Positions 7,545 to 54,249 of a stretch of 54,249 nt of DNA are shown here, piece by piece. The stretch covers positions 1 through 54,249 of the forward strand of contig CAYGHQ010000001.1 of the NCBI GenBank assembly GCA_964349845.1. Direction: 5' to 3'. The stretch's first letter is position 1. Every line of letters begins with the position of its first letter. A program made the position numbers and the translations under genes. Source of the stretch: an uncultured Candidatus Saccharibacteria bacterium (lineage in GTDB: Bacteria > Patescibacteriota > Minisyncoccia > Phycocordibacterales > CAYGHQ01). A model generated the notes under the pieces. That model made no database searches. It had not been told where the DNA came from and saw nothing but the letters and a program-made list of their open reading frames with translations.

Positions 7545-7573
7545 GAAATCCAAAATCCAAATCATGAAAATTA

Positions 7574-7729
7574 AAAAAGCACAAAATTCTAAATACGAAA
7601 TCCGAAACAAATCCGGAAAATTCTAAATTCTAAATCCAAAACAAAAAATCTTTATCTTTGTTTTGGTTATTTATATTTTCTTTATTTGGCTTCGTTTGTT
7701 TCGAATTCCGGATTTCGTGCTTCGGATTT
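7574..7729. repeat. Family E intergenic palindromic element, copy 1
   Basis: The arms are built from CGAAATCCGAAACAAA words around a central CCAAAACAAA/TTTGTTTTGG hairpin. The right arm 7677..7729 is the reverse complement of 8565..8617 with one mismatch. Confidence 0.85.
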
Positions 7730-7737
7730 AAATTGTT

Positions 7738-8562
7738 ATGGCTGAAACTTTAAAAATCATCAAACCAAAAAAAGTGTGGAGCTTGGACGACATCCGGGAA
7801 ATCTGGCAATACCGCGAGCTCATGTTTTTTTTCGTCTGGAGAGATATTAAAGTCCGATACAAGCAGACGGTAATCGGCATTCTTTGGGCGATAATTCAGC
7901 CATTCATCACAATGGCCGTTTTCAGCGTCTTTTTTGGCAAGCTCGCGGGCATTCCCTCGGACGGAATCCCCTATCCTATCTTTGTTTACGTAGGATTATT
8001 GTTCTGGCAATTTTTTTCCGGCTCGCTTGGAGAAACCGCAAATACCTTGATTGGAAACGCCTCCATCATCACTAAAGTTTATTTCCCACGGCTTATCCTT
8101 CCGATAGCCGATACGGCAACCAAGCTCGTGGATATGTTCTTTGCCAGCATTATTTTAGTCGGCCTTATGTTCTATTACGGATACACCCCTCACCTCGTTG
8201 GAATTCTTCTTATCCCCATACTTCTTTTTATATCATTTTTAATCGCAGTGGGAGGCGGATTAATCTTGGCTTCCGTCAATGTCAAATACCGAGACATTCG
8301 CTACGCCCTCCCCTTCTTTCTCCAAATTCTCCTTTTTTTGACGCCGGTTATTTATCCCGGAAGCATCGCCGGAAAATATTCGTGGCTTATGGCTCTTAAT
8401 CCGATGACAGGGGTAATCAAAGCGGCCAGAAACGGCATTTTGGGAGTAGCGCCGGTAAATTGGCTCCTGCTTTTCCTTTCCTTCCTCGGAGCGCTTCTGG
8501 TTTTTGCCATAGGAGTGATTGTCTTTAAGAAAACAGAGCGGTACTTTGCCGACATCGTATAA
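7738..8562 (+). CDS. wzm: ABC-2 type polysaccharide/teichoic-acid export permease
   Basis: 274 aa with six hydrophobic segments. The N-terminal signature is YRELMFFFVWRDIKVRYKQTVIGILWAIIQPF. It lies adjacent to the Wzt/TagH-like ATPase. Confidence 0.85.
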   Translation: MAETLKIIKPKKVWSLDDIREIWQYRELMFFFVWRDIKVRYKQTVIGILWAIIQPFITMAVFSVFFGKLAGIPSDGIPYPIFVYVGLLFWQFFSGSLGETANTLIGNASIITKVYFPRLILPIADTATKLVDMFFASIILVGLMFYYGYTPHLVGILLIPILLFISFLIAVGGGLILASVNVKYRDIRYALPFFLQILLFLTPVIYPGSIAGKYSWLMALNPMTGVIKAARNGILGVAPVNWLLLFLSFLGALLVFAIGVIVFKKTERYFADIV

Positions 8563-8564
8563 AT

Positions 8565-8729
8565 AAATCCGAAGCACGAAATCCGAAATTCGAAACAAAC
8601 GAAGCCAAATAAAGAAAGACCAAATAATCCAAAGCAAAAAACCAACAGAAAAACATTCTTCGTTTTGGATTTTGAATTTTCTACATTTTCTGGATTTGTT
8701 TCGGATTTCGAATTTCGGATTTCGTGCTT
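8565..8729. repeat. Family E intergenic palindromic element, copy 2
   Basis: The left arm AAATCCGAAGCACGAAATCCGAAATTCGAAACAAACGAAGCCAAATAAAGAAA pairs imperfectly with the right arm 8688..8729. Confidence 0.85.
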
Positions 8730-8780
8730 AATTAAATTTTCTTAGAATTCAGATTTTTTTAAATAAATTTAATTAATTGT

Positions 8781-10049: not shown

Positions 10050-11263
10050 GGATAGCTATCATTCTCTCGGGCATAGCGGGAAAATCCGGAACAGAGAGGC
10101 AGGCTCTGTCGCTAGCCAGCGCGCTTAAAAGAGAAGGGCATCATGTTGATTTATTCTGTTACTGGCACTCTCCGGATAAATGCTACACGGAGCTTGTCAA
10201 AGGGTTTGATGTTCATTACGTAAAACTTCTCAAGGAAGAAAAACGCGCGGAAAAACCCGCCGGCCGAAAGTTCTTGCCCGAAAAAATCCGCTACTTCGGG
10301 AGAATATATTTTCCGCTTATCAAAAAAATTCTTTTCACGGAAAAGCCTTTGAAAGAGCTCAAAGAGCTTATGGAAAAAACCAATCCCCTTTCCTTTTATG
10401 ATGTCCTTAACCTGCACGAATACGAGATATGCGGAATTGCCCGGATTTTGAGGCACCCGAATATAGTCTGCATGCTAAATGACGCCGGACACACCATCTC
10501 GCGGGGGAAACATCCCATTCATAATTTTTTCTACAATATTCTCCAAAGAATTTACAACCGGCTCATCTTCCGAAACATAAAAAAAATTACCGTTCTCAAC
10601 GAAGGAAGCGTGAAAATCTGCCAAGAATCATACGGCCTGACTCCGACAGTAGTCCGAAGCGGAATTGATATTCAGATTTTCAAAGATTTTCCCGCCACAA
10701 GAGAATTTCCACCGAAGACTCTTAAAATCTTCGCTTCCGGCATTTTTTCTCCGCATCGCCGTTTTGAAGATTTGGCGGACGCCATAGAAATCGTCCGAGA
10801 TAAAGGAGTGAAAAATATTGAAGCGGAAATAAATGGAAAGCACGATAGACATCACGAATATTATCTTTTTATCCAAGAGAGAATCCGGCAAAAAAAACTG
10901 GATGGGTATATAAAAATTACAAGCGGTATGTCGGAGGAAGAGCTTCGCCGGAAAATCAGAGATAGCCATATTTTTGTTTTTCCGAATATAAATCAGACGT
11001 GGGGACTTGCCGTTTTTGAAGCGATGCTCGGAGGGTGCGTCCCCATCGTAAATCGGGAAGCGGGAGCAAGCGAAATTCTTACCGATAATAAAAACGCGCT
11101 TCTTGTCAATCCCCTATCGCCCCGTGAAATTGCCGATAAAATCATTTACTTGGCGGAAAATCCGCAAGTCCTCCAAAAAATCTCCGAGGAAGCCCCGAAA
11201 TTCGTAAAAGAAAATCTGTCGTGGGAAAAATACGCGGAAGCAATGCTTAAAGCGTTTAAGTAG
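10046..11263 (+). CDS. Glycosyltransferase family 4 (GT-B, GT1/GT4 type)
   Basis: 405 aa. The C-terminal EX7E-type region is FPNINQTWGLAVFEAMLGGCVPIV. The start overlaps the wzt stop (ATGA). Confidence 0.7.
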   Translation: MRIAIILSGIAGKSGTERQALSLASALKREGHHVDLFCYWHSPDKCYTELVKGFDVHYVKLLKEEKRAEKPAGRKFLPEKIRYFGRIYFPLIKKILFTEKPLKELKELMEKTNPLSFYDVLNLHEYEICGIARILRHPNIVCMLNDAGHTISRGKHPIHNFFYNILQRIYNRLIFRNIKKITVLNEGSVKICQESYGLTPTVVRSGIDIQIFKDFPATREFPPKTLKIFASGIFSPHRRFEDLADAIEIVRDKGVKNIEAEINGKHDRHHEYYLFIQERIRQKKLDGYIKITSGMSEEELRRKIRDSHIFVFPNINQTWGLAVFEAMLGGCVPIVNREAGASEILTDNKNALLVNPLSPREIADKIIYLAENPQVLQKISEEAPKFVKENLSWEKYAEAMLKAFK

Positions 11264-11265
11264 AT

Positions 11266-11527
11266 AAACATACCAATATACAAATAAATCCCTCCCCCGT
11301 AAGAACGGGTACTCCTTACAGGAGCAGTCCACTCTTTCGCTCTCGCCGACTCGAGCTGAAAGAGTCTTGCGAAGCTCCTTAAGGTCGCTTCTCACCCTTT
11401 AAGAAAGGGAGATTTAAATCCTCCTTTATTAAAGGAGGCCCGCCCGAACCGTCCGAAGCGTCCGCTTCGGTACGGGCGGGTGGCCGGTACTCCGGACGGA
11501 GGATTTTATTTGTATATTGGTATGTTT
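11266..11527. repeat. Family F multi-hairpin element, copy 1
   Basis: 30-nt terminal inverted repeats (11266..11295 and 11498..11527, 28/30 complementary) enclose a chain of short GC-rich hairpins. These include CCTCCTTTATTAAAGGAGG (11420..11438) and CCCGCCCGAACCGTCCGAAGCGTCCGCTTCGGTACGGGCGGG (11439..11480). Confidence 0.9.
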
Positions 11528-11557
11528 AATTACTCATAATATTGGTATGTTAACCTC

Positions 11558-12649
11558 ATGATCAAAGTAAAATTCACAACTACTTTTCCGGAGATGCCGA
11601 TAATAAAAGTTACTCCCGAATCAAAGGGGGTTGTCGGCAACTGCCAATTTTTTGCAAATCAGGAAGTGGAAAATCCGGACTGGTGGGTTATCGTGGAAGG
11701 CCTGTCAAAAAAAGAAAAAGCTGTCTGTCCGCCGGAAAACACCATTCTCGTTACCCAGGAAACAGATCTCACCAAAATTTACGACCCGAAATTCATAAAA
11801 CAGTTCGGCTGGATAATCACTTGCAACAGAAAAATAAACCATCCCCGCGCCATTTTCCGCGACCAGGGATATTCTTCATATTTATTTATGAGAAGGCGGA
11901 AGCCGGGGGAAAAATTTTCTGATTGGCAGGATAATTTCAAAAGCTACGACTATCTTCGAGCTATGACCGACATACCTAAAGATAAGCTTATGTCGGTTGT
12001 CGCTTCCCACAAGACGAGAACAGCCGGAGCCAAAGCCCGTAAGGAATTTATCATAAAAATGAAAGAACATTTCAAAGATGGGCTGGACGCCTTCTCAAAC
12101 CTGCCCGGAGTCTTCGGCCCCGATACCAAAATTTCCGGCATAAAATGGAACGCTGTCGCCCCGTATAAATATCATCTGGCTATTGAAAACAGTCTTGTCC
12201 CCCACTACTGGACGGACAAGATTCTTGACGCCTACCTTGCCGGAGCATATCCTATCTATTACGGAGATCCTTCGGTCGCGGAGTATTTTCCCAAAAATTC
12301 TTTTACGATGATTGACATAAACAATATTGAGGAAAGCATAAAGATAATTGAAAAGGCCATTTCGGAAAACTATTGCGAAAAATACAAAAAAGAAATTTGG
12401 GAAGCAAGAAAGCTTTGTCTGGAGAAATACAACATTTTCGCGGTAGTCGCCGACACCATCTCCTCCCTGCCGTCCGGAAACAAAGCCAAGAAAATCTCCA
12501 TCCGCCCTGAAAAGCGCCTTTCCCTCGTTATCAAGCAGAAAGCCATAGAAATCGCGCAAAATATCCCCGTTATTTATCCAACCGTGAAAAAAATTTACCG
12601 AACGTACAGGAAACTGCGCTACAATCAAAAATTTGAAGATGAAAAATAA
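11558..12649 (+). CDS. Glycosyltransferase family 10-like (alpha-1,3/4-fucosyltransferase family)
   Basis: 363 aa. [36 protein letters not shown] matches the GT10 C-terminal motif (FxLxFENSxxxxYxTEK...PVxxG). Confidence 0.65.
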
Positions 12650-14544: not shown

Positions 14545-14568
14545 TTAATGCTGGTATTATTGCAATTT

Positions 14569-14718
14569 TAAAATCCGAAGCACGAAATCCGAAATCCGAA
14601 ACAAAGCCCAAAAATAAAGAAAATTAAAAATTCCAAACAAATTCGGTTACATTTTGAAAATTAGAATTTTGAATTTGCCTTCGTTTGTTTCGGATTTCGT
14701 GCTTCGGATTTCGAATTT
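14569..14718. repeat. Family E intergenic palindromic element, copy 3
   Basis: AAAATCCGAAGCACGAAATCCGAAATCCGAAACAAAGCCC pairs with GCCTTCGTTTGTTTCGGATTTCGTGCTTCGGATTTCGAATTT. It sits between the two transketolase subunit genes. Confidence 0.85.
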
Positions 14719-14728
14719 ACAAAATAAA

Positions 14729-15607
14729 ATGCGCAAACAATTCCCCAAAACAATAGAAAATTTGATGGAAAAAGACAATCGCCTTGTCGTTCTTTTGGGC
14801 GACATCGGCGTTTTTAGTTTCCAAAACGTTTTTTCCCGTTTCCCCGACCGAATTTATAATATCGGCATTTTGGAACAATCTACAATAGGAATGGCATCGG
14901 GACTTGCTATGGAAGGGTTTATTCCCATAGTCCATACCATCGCTCCGTTCTTGGTTGAAAGAGCCTATGAGCAATTAAAAGACGATTTCGGCTATCAGAA
15001 ACTTTCGGGAAAATTCGTAAGCGCCGGAGCATCCTATGACTACTCGGCCTTGGGTTCTACTCACCACTGCCCCGCCGATGTTCCTGTCCTAAAGCAAATT
15101 CCTGAAATGGAAATTGTTTTGCCCGGAACGGGAGAAGAGTTTGATTCCCTTTTTAAAGAAACTTACGCGAACGGACACCCGACTTATTTCCGCTTGAGCG
15201 AAAATAAAAATGACGCAAGCTTCCCTGTCGCTTTTGGAAAAGCAAATGTCGTAAAGCAAGGCAAAAAAGCAACAGTCATTGCCGTAGGGCCGATGCTCAA
15301 AAATGTTTTAACCGCCTGCAAGGACGAAGATGTAACAATTTTGTATTACACGACCGTAAGCCCATTTGACAAAGAGACTCTCCATGAAAATTTTGTCGGA
15401 GACAAAGTGATATTATGCGAGCCGTATTACAGCGGAGCTCTAGCTTTTGACGTTGCAAGCGCCTTGTCAGATAAAAAAGTTGAAACGCATTTTATCGGAG
15501 TTCCTTTGGAATTCTTGCGAAATTACGGAAAAGCTGAAGATCAAGATAATTTTTTGGGCTTGACAGAAGAAGCTATTGGGATAAAAATCAGAAAAATTTC
15601 AATATAA
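14729..15607 (+). CDS. Transketolase, C-terminal (pyrimidine-binding) subunit
   Basis: I chose the ATG at 14729 (MRKQFPKTIENL...); the longer track ORF begins inside the repeat. GILEQSTIGMASGLAMEGFIPIVHT is the Transket_pyr motif. Confidence 0.85.
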   Translation: MRKQFPKTIENLMEKDNRLVVLLGDIGVFSFQNVFSRFPDRIYNIGILEQSTIGMASGLAMEGFIPIVHTIAPFLVERAYEQLKDDFGYQKLSGKFVSAGASYDYSALGSTHHCPADVPVLKQIPEMEIVLPGTGEEFDSLFKETYANGHPTYFRLSENKNDASFPVAFGKANVVKQGKKATVIAVGPMLKNVLTACKDEDVTILYYTTVSPFDKETLHENFVGDKVILCEPYYSGALAFDVASALSDKKVETHFIGVPLEFLRNYGKAEDQDNFLGLTEEAIGIKIRKISI

Positions 15608-19940: not shown

Positions 19941-20099
19941 TGCGGAAATGGCGGAAATGGGGACAGCCAGAAATGGGGACCCAGAAATGCCCAGAAATGG
20001 AAATGGTGGAAATGGGGACAGCCACCATTTTTTACCTTTTCGTGTGTGGTGGAAATGGTGGAAATGGGGACAGCCACCATTTTTTACCTTTTCGTGTGT
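19939..20099. repeat. REP-like hairpin array (left flank of the RAYT gene)
   Basis: Two exact 45-nt copies of ATGGTGGAAATGGGGACAGCCACCATTTTTTACCTTTTCGTGTGT lie at 20003..20047 and 20055..20099. Each contains the hairpin AAATGGTGG(12 nt)CCACCATTT. Degenerate GAAATGGGGAC units precede them. Confidence 0.85.
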
Positions 20100-20108
20100 C
20101 ATAATAAT

Positions 20109-20780
20109 TTATAGTTTTTTAGGTCGGCCGGGAAAACGCAAGGTTGATTCAAGGTGATAGGCTGTCACCATTTGATTAACCCATTTTTCTCCCCCGTATG
20201 GTATTCCTTTTGTGACCGAAGCGCGAATAAATTCAAGATCTTCAGGGTTATCCGGTGTATTGACCCATTTAATATAATTGCCAGGAAAAGGTGTTAGGGA
20301 AGGATCAAGCAGTTTCCTTTCTTCTTTTGTCCCATTGATTCTTCGCCAAGCGCTTCCCCACTGCCAGCTTTCGCATTTGTCTGTTATTTTTGCTCTGACA
20401 GGATTGCGTTCCACATACTTTATCAAAGAAAGCAAATAACTATCGGTTTCAACCAAAAAAGACTTGTATCTGCCCTGATAAAGATGACCTGTGCCATTTG
20501 TGTTTGTTAAAGCATGCACTTTGCGAGTGTGGGAGTTAGACAAGCGGTGCATAAAAGTTCCAAGATCTCCGTCTTGTTTCGGATACAAAACAAGGTGCCA
20601 ATGATTTGGCATAATCACATAAGCAAGTATTCTCATATCAACCAATTCTTTAGTTTCAAGCAAAAGTGTTTCAATAATCCGATAGTCCTTCTCAGTATTA
20701 AAAATCTTATACCGCCCATTGGCGCGATTAATGACGTGATAAACCTTATCTCCAATATCAACTCTTGTGTTACGAGGCAT
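20109..20780 (-). CDS. REP-associated tyrosine transposase-like (IS200/IS605-type Y1 HUH transposase, COG1943)
   Basis: 223 aa. The HUH motif is present as NHWHLVL, and GHLYQGRYKSFLVETDSYLLSLIKYVERNPVRA contains the catalytic Tyr region. The gene is flanked by inverted copies of the GGGGACAGCCACC hairpin. Confidence 0.8.
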   Translation of the reverse strand: MPRNTRVDIGDKVYHVINRANGRYKIFNTEKDYRIIETLLLETKELVDMRILAYVIMPNHWHLVLYPKQDGDLGTFMHRLSNSHTRKVHALTNTNGTGHLYQGRYKSFLVETDSYLLSLIKYVERNPVRAKITDKCESWQWGSAWRRINGTKEERKLLDPSLTPFPGNYIKWVNTPDNPEDLEFIRASVTKGIPYGGEKWVNQMVTAYHLESTLRFPGRPKKL

Positions 20781-20954
20781 AGTTAAAATATTATATCATA
20801 CTTTTTGTTAAACAATGGTGGCTGTCCCCATTTGTCCACCATTAATGACGTGATAGACCTTATCTCCAATATCAACTCTTGCGTTACGAGGCATGGTGAA
20901 AATATTATATCATACTTTTTGTTAAACAATGGTGGCTGTCCCCATTTGTCTCCC
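20727..20954. repeat. 114-bp tandem duplication covering the RAYT 5' end, its upstream region and a REP
   Basis: 20727..20840 and 20841..20954 align with only a few substitutions. Each copy contains AATGGTGGCTGTCCCCATTT, the reverse complement of the left-flank REP core. Confidence 0.9.
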
Positions 20955-26263: not shown

Positions 26264-26290
26264 CCGAACACCGAAAAAACCAGCGTTCGG

Positions 26291-26346
26291 TAATTTCTAA
26301 TTTCTAATTCACCTAATTACCTAATAAAATTCCCAATAAATCCCAT
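26291..26346. repeat. Family C element, partial copy 2
   Basis: TTCACCTAAT..AAAATTCCCAATAA matches the reverse complement of 6066..6092. It uses the same TAATTTCTAATT / CCTAATTACCTAAT words. Confidence 0.7.
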
Positions 26347-26357
26347 TAGAAAGTTAT

Positions 26358-26466
26358 TTAGAACTTATGCATTTTCGCAGAAAATAATCGTTTCTCTTCT
26401 GTCATTCCCGCGAAGGCGGGAATCCAGTCTTTAAATCACAAAGCCCAAATAACACATAAGTCCTAA
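26358..26466. repeat. Family G MITE-like element, copy 1
   Basis: The termini TTAGAACTTATGC ... CACATAAGTCCTAA are inverted. The core hairpin is GTCATTCCCGCGAAGGCGGGAATCC. Confidence 0.75.
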
Positions 26467-37176: not shown

Positions 37177-37608
37177 ATGAAAAATAAATTTTACGAAATT
37201 ATAAAGTTTCCGTCTTTTTCCGGAAAAACCGGCACACTCACCATGCTAGAACACGGCAAAAATCCAAATAGCCTTGTCCCTTTTCCCATAAAAAGGGTTT
37301 TTACGATACGAGGAATGAAAGGGGAAGATGAAAGAGGCGGGCACACTCACCACAAAACCCGCCAGATTATTGTCTGCCTCCGAGGATCATGCCGGATAAA
37401 TCTGGATGACGGAAAGAAAAAAACTTTCGCGGATCTCAAAGATCCAAGCGAGGGTATCACCCTAGAACCCTACATCTGGCACACTATAAGCGATTTCAAA
37501 GGAGATCCGATTCTTATGGTTTTGGCGAGTACGGAATATGATGAGAGAGATTATATAAGAGATTACAGCCAGTTTTTGAAACTAGTTTCAAAAACTGGCA
37601 ATTACTAA
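37177..37608 (+). CDS. dTDP-4-keto-6-deoxyhexose 3,4-ketoisomerase (FdtA/QdtA, WxcM-like cupin)
   Basis: 143 aa. FPIKRVFTIRGMKGEDERGGHTHHKTRQIIVCLRGSC ... EYDERDYIRDY is the FdtA/QdtA pattern. The sequence cannot decide between the galacto and gluco product. Confidence 0.8.
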   Translation: MKNKFYEIIKFPSFSGKTGTLTMLEHGKNPNSLVPFPIKRVFTIRGMKGEDERGGHTHHKTRQIIVCLRGSCRINLDDGKKKTFADLKDPSEGITLEPYIWHTISDFKGDPILMVLASTEYDERDYIRDYSQFLKLVSKTGNY

Positions 37609-37876
37609 TTTCCAATATCCAATTTCCAATGAAATTAATAAAATCCTCAGGCGGAATACCGCCACCTCCTTTATTAAAGGAGGAATTAATTCTCCCTTTT
37701 TTAAAGGGAGCCCGCCCGAACCGTCCGAAGCGGACGCTTCGGTACGGGCGGGTACCCGTCTTCGGAGGGAGGGATTTAAGAAATTTCCGGCATTTCATTG
37801 TCCTTCAAATTCTTCAGGATGGTGAGCCTGTTGAATCCAGAAATTGGTAATTGAAAATTGGAAATTTTAATTCAAT
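37601..37876. repeat. Family F multi-hairpin element, copy 2
   Basis: The outer arms are built from CCAATTTCCAAT / ATTGGAAATT words. The core contains CCTCCTTTATTAAAGGAGG (37665..37683), CTCCCTTTTTTAAAGGGAG (37692..37710) and CCCGCCCGAACCGTCCGAAGCGGACGCTTCGGTACGGGCGGG (37711..37752). Confidence 0.9.
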
Positions 37877-38977: not shown

Positions 38978-39817
38978 ATGGTAATTGTAAAACTACAAGG
39001 AGGTCTCGGAAATCAGATGTTTCAATATGCCGCCGGAAGAGCGGCTTCTTTGCGCGTTGAAACAGAACTCAAGCTGGATGTGAGTTCGTTTCAGGAATAC
39101 AAGCTCCGGAAGTATTCTCTCCAAAATTTCAAGATAAAAGCGGATTTCGCTTTATCGGAAGAGACCAGAGAAGCCAAGGGAAATTTTTTAAAAAATCTCG
39201 TCTCCCCTTCGTGGATTAAGGAAGAGCCTTTTTCTCCGTGGAATTCTAAACTGCTTTCTCTTAAAGACAACGCCTATCTTGACGGCTACTGGCAAAGTGA
39301 AAAATATTTCAAAGATAAAGAGGAAAATATCCGGCAGGAATTTTCTCTTAAAAAACCTTTTCAAGCGGAAGCCGGAAAAATTTCCGCCCAGATGGAGGCC
39401 ACGGAAAATCCCGTTTCCATCCATGTTCGCCGAGGGGATTACGTTTCCAAAAAGCATTTAAATGAAATCTTCGGAGTATGCCATCCGGAATATTACGAGA
39501 AAGCGGTGGCTTTCGTAGCTGGAAAAACAAGCCATCCTGTTTTTTTCATATTTTCAGATGATATCGCGTGGGTCAAGGAGAATTTAAAAATTCAATTCCC
39601 CGCCGTTTTCGTTTCTAAATCAGAAATAGAGGATTTTGAAGAGCTTGCTCTTATGAGTGAGTGTAGACACAATATCATAGCCAATTCCACGTTCAGCTGG
39701 TGGGGAGCGTGGCTTAACAGGAATCCTGAAAAAATCGTTATTGCTCCCAAAAAGTGGTTTAATCATCCTTCTTTGAACACAAAGGACTTGATACCAGAAG
39801 GGTGGGTAAAGATTTAA
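38978..39817 (+). CDS. Glycosyltransferase family 11 (alpha-1,2-fucosyltransferase)
   Basis: 279 aa with GGLGNQMFQYAAGRA, HVRRGDYV and NSTFSWWGAWL. Confidence 0.85.
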   Translation: MVIVKLQGGLGNQMFQYAAGRAASLRVETELKLDVSSFQEYKLRKYSLQNFKIKADFALSEETREAKGNFLKNLVSPSWIKEEPFSPWNSKLLSLKDNAYLDGYWQSEKYFKDKEENIRQEFSLKKPFQAEAGKISAQMEATENPVSIHVRRGDYVSKKHLNEIFGVCHPEYYEKAVAFVAGKTSHPVFFIFSDDIAWVKENLKIQFPAVFVSKSEIEDFEELALMSECRHNIIANSTFSWWGAWLNRNPEKIVIAPKKWFNHPSLNTKDLIPEGWVKI

Positions 39818-39972
39818 ATTCGAAGCACGAAATCCGAAATTCGAAACAAACGAAGCCAAATAGAGTCAAAATTCAAATATCTAAACGGGATTTTTATGTG
39901 TCCTTGTTTAGAATTTGAGATTTTCTTCTATTTCGGGTTTTGTTTCGGATTTCGTGCTTCGAATTTCGGATT
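39815..39972. repeat. Family E intergenic palindromic element, copy 4
   Basis: AAATTCGAAGCACGAAATCCGAAATTCGAAACAAACGAAGCCAAATAGAG pairs with TTCTATTTCGGGTTTTGTTTCGGATTTCGTGCTTCGAATTTCGGATTT. Confidence 0.85.
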
Positions 39973-39980
39973 TAATAAAT

Positions 39981-54195: not shown

Positions 54196-54249
54196 TTGAC
54201 ATAATTTAGCAAAATCCAGCTATAGCTGGATTTTGCTAAATTATGTCAA
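54196..54249. repeat. 54-nt perfect palindrome ending exactly at the window edge
   Basis: TTGACATAATTTAGCAAAATCCAGCTA is followed by its exact reverse complement. It may extend beyond the window. Confidence 0.95.

Follow-up and report, generated by a model that had tools for sequence, protein, structure and literature searches.

The two loci in the window

The window, i.e., the whole stretch of 54,249 nucleotides that was analysed, belongs to a CPR genome of 1.08 Mb and contains two loci, locus 1 (11259-11534) and locus 2 (37600-37876), each situated within a run of co-directional genes. Both have the same architecture, consisting of layered AT-rich arms, end modules of the form AAATCC(C)TCC...GGAGGGATTT, and a chain of GC-rich hairpin modules. 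The predicted fold of locus 1 has an energy of -133.9 kcal/mol with z = -11.8 relative to shuffled sequences; for locus 2 the corresponding z is -6.4.

The outermost parts of locus 1 form an inverted repeat (I13) of 37 nt with 89% complementarity. Its left AT-rich arm (11259..11295) overlaps the TAG stop of the upstream gene (11261-11263), includes the word ATAAACATACCAATATACAAATAAA, which recurs in other contigs, and has blastn-short matches at C43, C11 and C5; the right AT-rich arm (11498..11534) also has matches in other contigs. The end module m2 (11286..11315, + strand) consists of AAATCCCTCC, a small covarying hairpin (CCCGtaagaaCGGG) and TACTCC, with 30-nt matches at C3, C40, C70, C7, C66 and C60 that carry hairpin variants at the same position. 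It is followed by the three-helix module M of 88 nt (11310..11397, + strand; score 100.5 bits with the covariance model R1) and by the hairpin CACCCTTT-AAG-AAAGGGAG (11393..11411), whose 5' arm is split by M and which the hairpin census and context listing place in a CTCCC-palindrome family of about 60 copies. The palindrome CCTCCTTT-ATT-AAAGGAGG (11420..11438), one of 86 copies of CCTCCTTTnnnAAAGGAGG, comes next, and between this CCTCC palindrome and the end module m6 lies a 42-mer S hairpin in its TC state (11439..11480, + strand). The module m6 (11481..11508, + strand), composed of TG, the hairpin GCCGGTACTCCGGAC and GGAGGATTTT, is the inverted counterpart of m2 and has about 25 matches of 28-32 nt elsewhere.

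In locus 2, a left AT-rich arm of TTTCCAAT-type words (37600..37638), recurring at C25, C10, C8, C95 and C12, is followed by an inverted m6-like end module with AAAATCCTC and the hairpin GGCGGAATACCGCC (37639..37664, - strand as assigned from the shared C40 and C38 matches). The loop of the CCTCC palindrome (37665..37683) reads ATT on the + strand and AAT when taken in the orientation of the frame. The CTCCCTTTTTTAAAGGGAG hairpin of the CTCCC family (37692..37710) is intact and lacks M, and the 42-mer S hairpin, here in the GA state (37711..37752, + strand), lies between AAAGGGAG and TACCCG, i.e., at the position corresponding to that of M in locus 1 once the two frames are put in one orientation. 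An inverted m2-like end module (37753..37777, - strand), consisting of TA, the hairpin CCCGTCTTCGGAGGG and AGGGATTT, and a right AT-rich arm detected by inverted-repeat and blastn-short searches (37842..37868) complete the locus.

An earlier sequence-only reading had treated the two loci as the two copies of a discrete "Family F". Its description of the shared pieces holds: the 42-mer CCCGCCCGAACCGTCCGAAGCG-NN-CGCTTCGGTACGGGCGGG occurs once in each locus, at 11439-11480 and 37711-37752, identical except for the central TC or GA (0 of 100 shuffles matched); the 19-mer CCTCCTTTATTAAAGGAGG occurs at 11420-11438 and 37665-37683; and the CCCTTT..AAAGGG hairpin lies on opposite sides of the 19-mer, 5' in locus 1 (11395-11409) and 3' in locus 2 (37692-37710). 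The swapped hairpin order is explained by the finding that locus 2 is the frame of locus 1, inverted; the m4 and m6 segments of locus 1 match the same C40 and C38 copies as those of locus 2, on opposite strands. The four to five additional mini-hairpins described for locus 1 are present as well, only they belong to the separate module M and an end module.

Other parts of that description do not survive comparison with the genome. All segments of both loci recur elsewhere, each with 5-40 genomic matches in both orientations, and this includes the outer arms that had been called unrelated, which recur at C33 in addition to the sites given above. The 42-mer is found in eight copies plus a bulge-less variant rather than in two, and the 19-mer is one loop variant of the 86-copy family rather than a two-copy piece of its own. 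Instead of a family bounded by variable terminal inverted repeats, "Family F" is two mosaics of genome-wide hairpin modules, among them about 86 CCTCC palindromes, about 60 copies of M and 28 S hairpins. By k-mer count, 14-mers present at least 3 times cover 167.7 kb of the 1.08 Mb, and nested hairpin repeat DNA thus amounts to about 15% of the genome, a crude k-mer figure that is very rough. A literature search did not find such repeats described in CPR. Sequestration of ribosome-binding sites, suggested by the resemblance of the CCTCC palindrome to paired SD and anti-SD sequences, is rejected, with 0 of 86 palindromes located 3-15 nt from a gene start.

Module M and the possibility of a structured RNA

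Module M has three helices, P1 with the loop TTACA and P2 and P3 with variable tips, and three near-invariant single-stranded boxes, GTMCAC, TCTTGCGRAGC and CGCTYCTCACCC. Covariance-model search yields 62 matches in its own genome, and of 150 genomes from the same order 76 contain M. Across alignments, 95-97% of the cells are paired and 10-14 of the 16 pairs show compensatory changes, nearly all of them Watson-Crick, and the absence of covariation envisaged in the earlier reading is not what is observed. Alignment A2 has 97.1% paired cells, compensatory changes at 14 of the 16 pairs and only about 3 G·U cells in 611; in alignment A1, G·U pairs occupy 7 of 624 cells.

Copies of M occur in both orientations and in all gene contexts, i.e., in convergent, divergent and co-directional spacers. 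Next to co-directional genes, M is opposite to them in direction by 17:6. In the relatives, M lies near tRNA genes in 7 of 10 loci of 3 kb and in 8 of 21 loci of 1.1 kb, often downstream of the tRNA gene and mostly convergent with it. An M-bearing repeat also lies in frame inside secA, where it forms an insert of 294 nt, encoding about 98 aa (residues ~167-265), that is missing in 24 of 24 order relatives and in the SecA sequences of the PDB, and a copy is likewise read through in frame within a UvrD-like gene.

The conservation of M over many families of one order is deeper than is usual for selfish repeats, and M could have a host function; the orientation bias and the proximity to tRNA genes leave room for a role at the transcript level. 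The strongest competing explanation is that M, and perhaps every one of the elements, acts as a functional structured RNA, such as a 3'-end, processing or stability element of operon or tRNA transcripts or a small RNA, in which hairpin order would be free because each hairpin acts alone. The very strong covariation, the conserved loop and junction boxes, the wide occurrence of M in the order, its tRNA neighbourhood and direction relative to genes, and the position of both loci in co-directional gene runs with folds far better than those of shuffles all agree with this explanation, which we nevertheless consider rather unlikely. G·U pairs make up only about 0.5% of paired cells, the pairing is conserved equally on both strands, and copies occur in every spacer type and orientation and are read through in frame in secA and the UvrD-like gene. 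An Rfam match is absent even at E <= 10: the Rfam 15 covariance models gave no gathering-level match in the window, and a permissive threshold applied to 11200-11600 returned noise only (E = 1.8-10). Consensus scans for promoter and terminator signals gave values no higher than shuffles, and promoter or terminator function is rejected as well. Structured RNA is disfavoured because of the near absence of G·U pairs and of any Rfam match. The earlier suggestion that stem conservation with rearranged modules goes beyond drift stands, and drift accounts for the data less well than does a hairpin-recognising DNA transaction.

Candidate mobilising enzymes

The sequence-only reading had also suggested looking for a co-occurring HUH/Y1 or other hairpin-binding enzyme. 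Four RAYT-like genes (PF01797) are present in the genome; the one that lies in the window, at 20109-20780, encodes a protein that scores 69.9 bits with the NCBIfam model REP_Tyr_transpos, below the 80-bit cut-off. Together with the hairpin form of the modules, many of which are arranged in inverted pairs, these genes would fit REP/REPIN-type repeats moved in trans by RAYT-like Y1 (HUH) transposases. The gene flanks argue otherwise, since each gene has its own, different REP (the distinct hairpins GGGGACAGCCACC, TGTAGGACTTAAAGTCCTACA and CAGATGGGCACCATCTG and one of a GAGGCTAAGCCTC type), none of which is a Family F module, and none of the four genes is flanked by the 42-mer, M, or CCTCC/CTCCC palindromes. 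In the 150 order genomes, which are related to each other so that the table is descriptive only, 45 have both M and Y1, 31 have M without Y1, 43 have Y1 without M and 31 have neither (odds ratio ~1.05); genomes G028, G042 and G049 have 13-16 copies of M and no Y1 match. Given these flanks and co-occurrence counts, mobilisation by Y1/RAYT is largely refuted, and we regard it as very improbable.

With respect to the features of MITEs, an inverted repeat is present in locus 1, with arms built in layers, pieces of which recur at other loci. In an all-against-all blastp comparison of the ORFs of 30 M loci in relatives, no autonomous partner gene and no recurrent ORF family of the full-length IS kind was found beside M; only translations of the repeats themselves were shared.

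The 42-mer and its central dinucleotide

The S hairpins, present at 28 loci in the genome (G000), share a shell that runs from CCCGCCC through a bulge of 5 nt (GAAnC), an inner stem whose tip varies, and CGGTAC to GGGCGGG, and they include forms of 32 nt and 35 nt. The 42-mer is a derived member of this family, one subtype with eight copies. Hairpins related to S occur in many genomes of the order, where a reversed control pattern gives few matches.

Comparison of filled and empty sites indicates how the 42-mer is placed. Four copies of M are filled (GCGAAGC^..^TTCCTTAAGG and ^TCCAAGTATT) vs about 45 empty ones, and at AAAGGAGG^ three sites are filled vs dozens of empty sites of the AAAGGAGG^TGKCC type. 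The 42 nt are the sole difference between a filled and an empty site, apart from at most 1-2 ambiguous C, and the comparison reveals no target duplication at the borders; neither a common target sequence nor a duplication was found at the five contexts of the 42-mer. The 42-mer thus behaves as a discrete hairpin insert without target duplication, and each of the two loci in the window has taken up one copy. The search in relatives that had been suggested recovered it in its own genome; the exact form was not found in 60 order relatives or in the other genome contigs searched. A metagenome scan detected a variant in only two near-identical contigs of one distant CPR organism, where the 42-mer is 93-98% identical and the remaining contig DNA is 67-69% identical or unalignable. 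The variant in L013 occupies a tRNA D-loop position, as do S hairpins near GIY-YIG genes.

The three TC copies share one context, CCTCCTTTnTTAAAGGAGG and TGnCCGGTAnTCCGGACGGAGGATTTT on the two sides of the 42-mer, and the five GA copies are found in three or four contexts. Since one flanking context accounts for all three TC copies, a single inversion event suffices, and the tabulation does not bear out recurrent flip/flop. The sequences point to one past loop inversion, old and one-off, as the probable origin of the TC/GA difference, and nothing indicates that a switch is at work. The event would have been an inversion of the 4-nt loop in the inner palindrome CCGAAGC-GKMC-GCTTCGG, possibly through a template switch or through conversion between copies lying in opposite orientations, and the inverted form would then have spread to three loci within a block of ~95-113 nt. 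General loop flipping of these hairpins is rejected on the evidence of the 86-copy CCTCC family, where the orientation of the loop relative to the flanks is essentially fixed (62:1).

It is hardly credible that the inner 18-nt hairpin is an active switch, i.e., an invertible mini-segment that toggles the 42-mer between two folds because the alternative stem CGTCCG-AAG-CGGACG can form in the GA state only: the eight genomic copies do have TC or GA and nothing else, these are exact reverse complements, and the second fold of GA is retained through compensatory changes in C28, C12 and L013, but the state follows context, with the TC copies representing one block lineage, locus 1 is TC in two other, independent sequencing runs as well (two Logan contigs, which break inside the 42-mer and which, with the same assembly, are all that the comparison via identical flanking proteins covers), in the related metagenome copy the dinucleotide is AA, accompanied by a compensating change rather than a flip, the sister family is fixed in loop orientation, and the minimum free energy is the same in both states (-27.7 kcal/mol).

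Small GIY-YIG nucleases and tRNA genes

In four genomes an S hairpin is adjacent to a small GIY-YIG gene (G000 C53, G440:C58, G139:C1 and G419:C4). At all four sites the hairpin occupies the D-loop of a relic tRNA half, with the nuclease gene 30-60 nt downstream of it, and at these junctions a tRNA gene has been split by the small GIY-YIG gene, which also regenerated it. The C53 nuclease is a protein of 80 aa. The tRNA-relic reading of L013 and C53 is a by-eye alignment to the intact neighbouring tRNA; ARAGORN, with or without introns, did not call the interrupted tRNA-like genes of either. None of the exact 42-mer, M and CCTCC palindrome copies flanks a small GIY-YIG gene, and NCBIfam searches yielded no useful family for the small GIY-YIG proteins. 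The association with M over 150 genomes is weak (33/22/43/52, odds ratio ~1.8), and several genomes with many copies of M, e.g., G028 and G005, have neither Y1 nor small GIY-YIG matches at the thresholds used.

Ssn proteins are single-strand-specific GIY-YIG nucleases with NTS/SRM hairpin repeats (Chenal et al. 2025, PMC11893778). An SsnA-like gene at C47 has TGTCATTCCCGCGAAGGCGGGAATCCAG on both flanks. The published SRM pattern, HGTCWYN(0-2)YYVSBRHN(0-5)WNVSBRGN(0-2)RNCYNB, has 51 matches in the genome; the window contains one of these (26400-26427), whereas 11259-11534 and 37600-37876 contain none.

Proposed explanation

We favour the explanation, with a probability of roughly 0.6 for the explanation as a whole, that both loci are composite, gene-less, palindromic DNA repeats from a superfamily that occupies very roughly 15% of the genome, in which non-autonomous hairpin modules, candidate GIY-YIG sites and one TC/GA inversion are combined. 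The modules would be propagated and recognised as single-stranded DNA hairpins, and the S hairpin would be the putative cognate site of its GIY-YIG subfamily, as SRM/NTS is for Ssn. Mobile DNA is preferred over RNA because the pairing is Watson-Crick with almost no G·U and the secA insert is absent from 24 relatives. A more far-reaching version can be offered only tentatively: M and the S hairpins may be DNA recognition elements of an undescribed mobile system acting across the whole CPR order, with tiny GIY-YIG nucleases or another enzyme working on folded single-stranded DNA and placing modules into hairpin loops and arms, into D- and anticodon loops of tRNA genes and, in frame, into essential genes, which might account both for the ~15% of nested repeats and for the regeneration of broken tRNA genes.

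CPR/Patescibacteria genomes are usually portrayed as small, streamlined and repeat-poor. The approximately 15% of nested hairpin repeats, the presence of M in half of the sampled genomes of the order, and its tolerance in secA contrast with this view. Such repeats break assemblies and create false ORFs, and a model of the repeats therefore improves annotation.

Comparison with known systems

Minute inversions of hairpin loops in plastid DNA were reportedly described by Kelchner and Wendel in 1996. As in those inversions (PMC6005162, PMC6342102), the TC/GA difference consists of a reverse-complemented spacer between unchanged arms; here, in contrast, it distinguishes paralogous copies within one bacterial genome, apparently arose once, and is rare in the sister family (62:1).

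The REP, BIME and REPIN elements with their RAYT transposases (PMC3116915; reviewed in PMC3184786 and PMC2229807) are similar in being GC-rich extragenic palindromes that occur in inverted pairs and in many copies in spacers between co-directional genes, and BIMEs are likewise mosaics of a few short motifs. Our modules differ from REP/REPIN in that the RAYTs here have other cognate REPs and do not co-occur with M, the modules are nested in each other's arms and loops, and M is conserved over the entire order.

Like the repeats found here in the essential gene secA (~98 aa, absent in 24 relatives) and the UvrD-like gene, the RPE elements (mentioned in PMC10969869) are read in frame. Their sequences and host lineage are unrelated to ours, and most of our copies are intergenic and modular. 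The RPE, or Rickettsia palindromic elements, are said to have been reported by Ogata et al. in 2000 as small palindromic repeats in frame in protein genes. RPEs are not known to be linked with GIY-YIG or tRNA genes. Modular small interspersed repeats include the pneumococcal BOX elements (boxA-boxB(n)-boxC), Correia/NEMIS and ERIC. These, too, are composite intergenic elements that may or may not contain internal modules, have terminal inverted repeats and are predicted to fold strongly; in our case, however, the 42-mer lacks a target-site duplication, no related autonomous IS was found beside M (30 loci), and the arms are layered low-complexity AT-rich words rather than a single defined TIR.

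The arrangement of S hairpins and GIY-YIG genes resembles the Ssn/SRM system, as judged from gene neighbourhood, and the likeness suggests a link to the enzyme. Both involve small dispersed hairpins with sequence-specific shells in tens of copies and, for the S-hairpin family though not for its exact 42-mer subtype, a single-domain GIY-YIG gene with a product of ~80-95 aa that is flanked by its hairpin. The genome also contains a canonical pair, in which two NTS-like SRMs enclose the C47 gene, and in the four genomes it is genes of another small GIY-YIG subfamily that have an S hairpin directly upstream. The differences are that the Family F modules do not conform to the published SRM pattern, that the S-associated nuclease genes reside within split-and-regenerated tRNA genes, which is undescribed for Ssn (PMC11893778), and that M and the CCTCC palindromes lack an associated nuclease gene. 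If the link between S hairpins and GIY-YIG nucleases is real, it would provide a testable enzyme-site pair, account for many of the spacers that carry no annotation and of the odd low-complexity stretches inserted in CPR proteins, and extend the Ssn-type partnership of single-stranded DNA nuclease and hairpin to a mobile, tRNA-targeting form.

Composition of the two loci

Family F is not a discrete two-copy family, as the sequence-only reading had proposed; its two copies are mosaics of modules repeated across the genome. Both lie in spacers between plus-strand genes: locus 1 (11259-11534) separates two glycosyltransferase genes, the first ending at 11263 and the second starting at 11558, and locus 2 (37600-37876) separates an FdtA-like gene, which ends at 37608, from a DegT-type aminotransferase gene. 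The two core pieces described as common to both copies are located in each locus, namely a 19-nt palindrome (11420-11438 and 37665-37683) and a 42-nt nested hairpin, the 42-mer, at 11439-11480 with central TC and at 37711-37752 with central GA. As had been stated, the 42-mers are otherwise identical, and none of 100 shuffles gave such a match. Locus 1 ends in 37-nt terminal inverted arms, and its predicted fold is a long closing stem enclosing seven or eight hairpins (-133.9 kcal/mol, z = -11.8); for locus 2 the predicted fold gives z = -6.4.

The window is contig C1 of an assembly of 1.08 Mb (103 contigs, 42% G+C), and the source genome is the sole member of its family in the genome set compared. 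Comparison of the loci with this genome by blastn-short gave 178 matches for locus 1 and 143 for locus 2, covering all segments; the outer arms, which had been considered unrelated, are AT-rich sequences that also match elsewhere in the genome. The loci can be decomposed into layered AT-rich arms (7-9-nt words), end modules in which AAATCC(C)TCC is joined to a small hairpin that covaries (the other end carries the inverse form), an 88-nt module M (11310-11397), a CTCCCTTT..AAAGGGAG hairpin present in about 60 copies, a CCTCCTTTnnnAAAGGAGG palindrome present in 86 copies in the genome, and finally the 42-mer. Overall, 14-mers occurring at least 3 times span 167.7 kb, about 15% of the assembly, a figure that is rough because some contigs resemble inverted duplicates. 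On contigs C6 and C26, identical features recur on the two strands in mirror-image positions (M, for instance, is found at C6:3976-4063 (+) and at 26274-26361 (-)), which raises the repeat counts slightly; they look like inverted self-duplications, possibly assembly artefacts. The window also contains a second family of long AT-rich inverted arms built of CGAAAT-type 7-nt words (AAATCCGAAGCACGAAATCCGAAA...) at 7567-8739, 14559-14730 and 39807-39978, bracketing other gene junctions of the glycan locus, as well as perfect zero-spacer palindromes of 74 nt (1136-1209) and 54 nt (54196-54249), the latter of which reaches the window's last nucleotide and may result from assembly.

The swapped order of hairpins noticed between the copies is real, and an inverted frame explains it. 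Locus 2 opens with an m6-like end module and closes with an m2-like one, and segments m4 and m6 of locus 1 match the same copies on C40 and C38 as those of locus 2 do, but on the opposite strand, so that locus 2 is the frame of locus 1 inverted. When both are oriented in a common frame, the 42-mer of locus 2 is flanked by the m2 and CTCCC hairpins, at the place that M holds in locus 1, and the 42-mer of locus 1 sits between the CCTCC palindrome and m6.

The 42-mer and its two states

A genome search with the two core pieces, as the sequence-only reading had suggested, assigned the 19-mer to the 86-copy palindrome and found eight copies of the 42-mer together with a bulge-less perfect-hairpin variant on C12. 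These occupy at least four contexts: after AAAGGAGG (C1a, the locus 1 copy, and those on C3 and C30), after AAAGGGAG (C1b, the locus 2 copy), in the P3 loop of M after GCGAAGC (C34, C50, C28 and the C12 variant), and within an AT-rich arm (C13). Empty sites are plentiful; about 45 copies of M have an unbroken P3 loop, and dozens of CCTCC palindromes run straight into TGKCC. Apart from the 42 nt, filled and empty sites do not differ, and therefore no target duplication is seen. Judged by these comparisons, the 42-mer behaves as a discrete insert. A variant (CCCGCCCGAACCGTTCGAAGCGAACGCTTCGGTACGGGCGGG), 93-98% identical, is carried by two metagenome contigs that are nearly identical and come from a distant CPR organism; their other DNA aligns to this genome only as short rRNA pieces or at 67-69%.

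The TC state (n = 3; C1a, C3, C30) is confined to one block, CCTCCTTTnTTAAAGGAGG[42]TGnCCGGTAnTCCGGACGGAGGATTTT, whose copies are 95-97% identical over 95-113 nt, and the GA state (n = 5; C1b, C13, C34, C50, C28) occurs in three or four contexts. Both retain the inner hairpin CCGAAGC-loop-GCTTCGG, with equal predicted energy (-27.7 kcal/mol). The GA form also allows an alternative pairing, CGTCCG-AAG-CGGACG, a stem that the TC form lacks; it is perfect in C28 and C12, includes a T·G in C13, and is kept in the metagenome copy by a double change (CGTTCG/CGAACG, centre AA). Two independent adjacent mutations that hit precisely the central dinucleotide of 42-mers identical everywhere else and give the reverse complement are unlikely (about 1e-4 by our own arithmetic), and one loop inversion is the economical reading. 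We infer that the loop would have been inverted once, by a template switch inside the palindrome or by conversion from a copy in the opposite orientation, after which the TC-bearing block would have spread to further loci. The flip/flop description holds in that TC and GA are exact reverse complements and both occur, and is unsupported as an active switch: nothing in these sequences suggests a working one, with Logan contigs from other runs (n = 2) having TC at locus 1 and the loop of the 86-copy CCTCC family, read relative to its asymmetric flanks, being CTT in 62 copies and AAG in 1.

Structure, spread and placement of module M

An alignment of 39 copies of M from this genome served to build a covariance model. 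Its three helices (P1, P2 and P3) show 94.9% pairing and compensatory changes in 10 of 16 pairs, and pairing falls to 35-54% if the partners are slid by 1-3 columns. The model has 62 matches in this genome. Of 150 genomes from the same order, 76 carry M, in many families and often with 5-17 per genome, vs one match among 150 others sampled phylum-wide, nearly all of them from outside the order. In the relatives (43 matches, about 30 loci) M is 97.1% paired, 14 of 16 pairs show compensatory changes, and G·U occupies about 3 of 611 cells. Two lone copies without covariation, the outcome named beforehand as speaking against the family, are far from what is found (eight 42-mers; compensatory changes at 10-14 of 16 pairs of M). 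Since G·U is almost absent, the data argue either for pairing that counts on both strands, and hence in DNA, or for correction of one arm against the other. Unpaired boxes are conserved (a TTACA loop, GTMCAC, TCTTGCGRAGC and CGCTYCTCACCC), and the tips of P2 and P3 are exchangeable cassettes. One subfamily of M lies in the 5' arm of SRMs, hairpins of the Ssn nucleases (GTCATTCC^M^CCCGCGAAGGCGGGAATCCAG); another, as in locus 1, occupies the equivalent place in the CTCCC hairpin.

Crude ORF calling places M in spacers of all three kinds (co-directional, convergent and divergent) and in both orientations, with a modest excess opposite to co-directional genes (17 vs 6), and six copies lie within ORFs of at least 250 aa, always in ORF orientation. 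No recurrent partner gene was found beside M at 30 loci of relatives. In relatives, the fetched flanks include tRNA genes, most of them convergent with M, at 7 of the 10 3-kb loci and at 8 of the 21 loci of about 1.1 kb; enrichment near tRNA genes is not evident in this genome, where one copy of M lies in the 23S-5S spacer (C29:8347-8453). In view of the conserved boxes, the order-wide spread and this proximity to tRNA genes, M may instead be a structured RNA, a reading that we consider improbable given the scarcity of G·U, the occurrence in both orientations and the copies read in frame within ORFs. The 3' part of the 23S rRNA is split by an insert of >3 kb (C29:8754-12390, C41:8337-8901), and a group I intron was detected.

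The clearest of the copies within ORFs is that in secA (C7:17802-20759). There, repeat DNA with M in it is translated into a low-complexity stretch at residues about 167-265, giving an in-frame insert of about 98 aa that consists of hairpin repeats (about C7:18300-18600). PDB SecA sequences match residues 12-159 and 279-502 and have only 8-45 residues between the two parts. All 24 of 24 order relatives lack the insert, the matching DNA pieces being 3-15 nt apart in the examples checked, and their ORFs have 811-865 aa vs 986 aa in this genome. These comparisons show a DNA-level insertion in this lineage. There is a second low-complexity insert near the C-terminus.

Candidate enzymes

The co-occurring HUH/Y1 enzyme that the first observation had envisaged was looked for, and four Y1 genes were found, one of them in the window (20109-20780, - strand). 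Each is bracketed by a hairpin family of its own, none of which is a Family F module, and across the same 150 order genomes M and Y1 are unrelated (45 with both, 31 with M only, 43 with Y1 only and 31 with neither); Y1 was rejected as the enzyme of these modules. The RAYT-like gene in the window is flanked by inverted copies of its hairpin (19943-20950; core GGGGACAGCCACC) and wedged into IS3-family transposase fragments, and a 110-nt direct duplication (20727-20950) takes in its 5' end.

The genome has seven small GIY-YIG genes; among order genomes, the presence of small GIY-YIG genes is only weakly associated with M (odds ratio about 1.8). Ssn GIY-YIG nucleases have been described with an NTS consensus and an SRM hairpin pattern (PMC11893778). 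Genome-wide, the published SRM pattern is matched 51 times, once in the window (26400-26427; TGTCATTCCCGCGAAGGCGGGAATCCAG, canonical NTS/SRM) and never in the Family F loci.

The 42-mer is one subtype of a 28-locus family of S hairpins, with a shell of CCCGCCC, a GAAnC bulge, an inner stem, CGGTAC and GGGCGGG; related hairpins occur across the order. At C53:1-420 (- strand), a relic tRNA-Thr 5' half carries two S-type hairpins, after position 9 and in the D-loop at GGTA^GAGC; an 80-aa GIY-YIG gene begins in the anticodon loop, and a complete tRNA-Thr follows, running off the contig end. The three closest homologues of this protein (55-59% identity; G440:C58, G139:C1 and G419:C4) share this layout, including an S hairpin in the relic's D-loop, and two more distant homologues have other GC hairpins at that position. 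C8:15511-15900 resembles this layout, with tRNA-Ser. On the metagenome contig, the 42-mer variant occupies the corresponding D-loop site in a tRNA-like gene that is interrupted. This gene (L013:8290-8600, Ga0209343_10002887; same in L012) lies just after a heavily interrupted 16S gene and has a complete tRNA-Ile(GAU) nested in the anticodon loop between long complementary arms; ARAGORN calls the inner tRNA alone. Given no more than about 8 hairpins of this kind per 1-Mb genome, we estimate informally that their adjacency to the nuclease gene is very unlikely to arise by chance. The S hairpins are candidate cognate sites or end structures of the C53-type nuclease subfamily, and the dispersed 42-mers would be solo derivatives of them.

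Discussion

The earlier observation is real but mis-bounded: Family F gives a glimpse of a CPR superfamily of nested hairpin repeats, of which our literature search found no description. Regulation by SD/anti-SD pairing in the CCTCC palindromes, suggested by the pairing of an anti-SD-like CCTCC with an SD-like GGAGG, was rejected, and a promoter or terminator function of the repeats is unsupported.

Among known systems, the M-bearing repeat in secA behaves as Rickettsia palindromic elements are described to do, being a repeat inserted in frame in a protein gene. An Ssn-type pair is present in this genome at C47:7738-8022, where an SsnA-like GIY-YIG gene of 95 aa has on both sides the hairpin TGTCATTCCCGCGAAGGCGGGAATCCAG, which fits the published NTS consensus (PMC11893778). 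Although they belong fully to none of these classes, the repeats described here resemble REP/BIME, RPE and Ssn/SRM elements in how they work.
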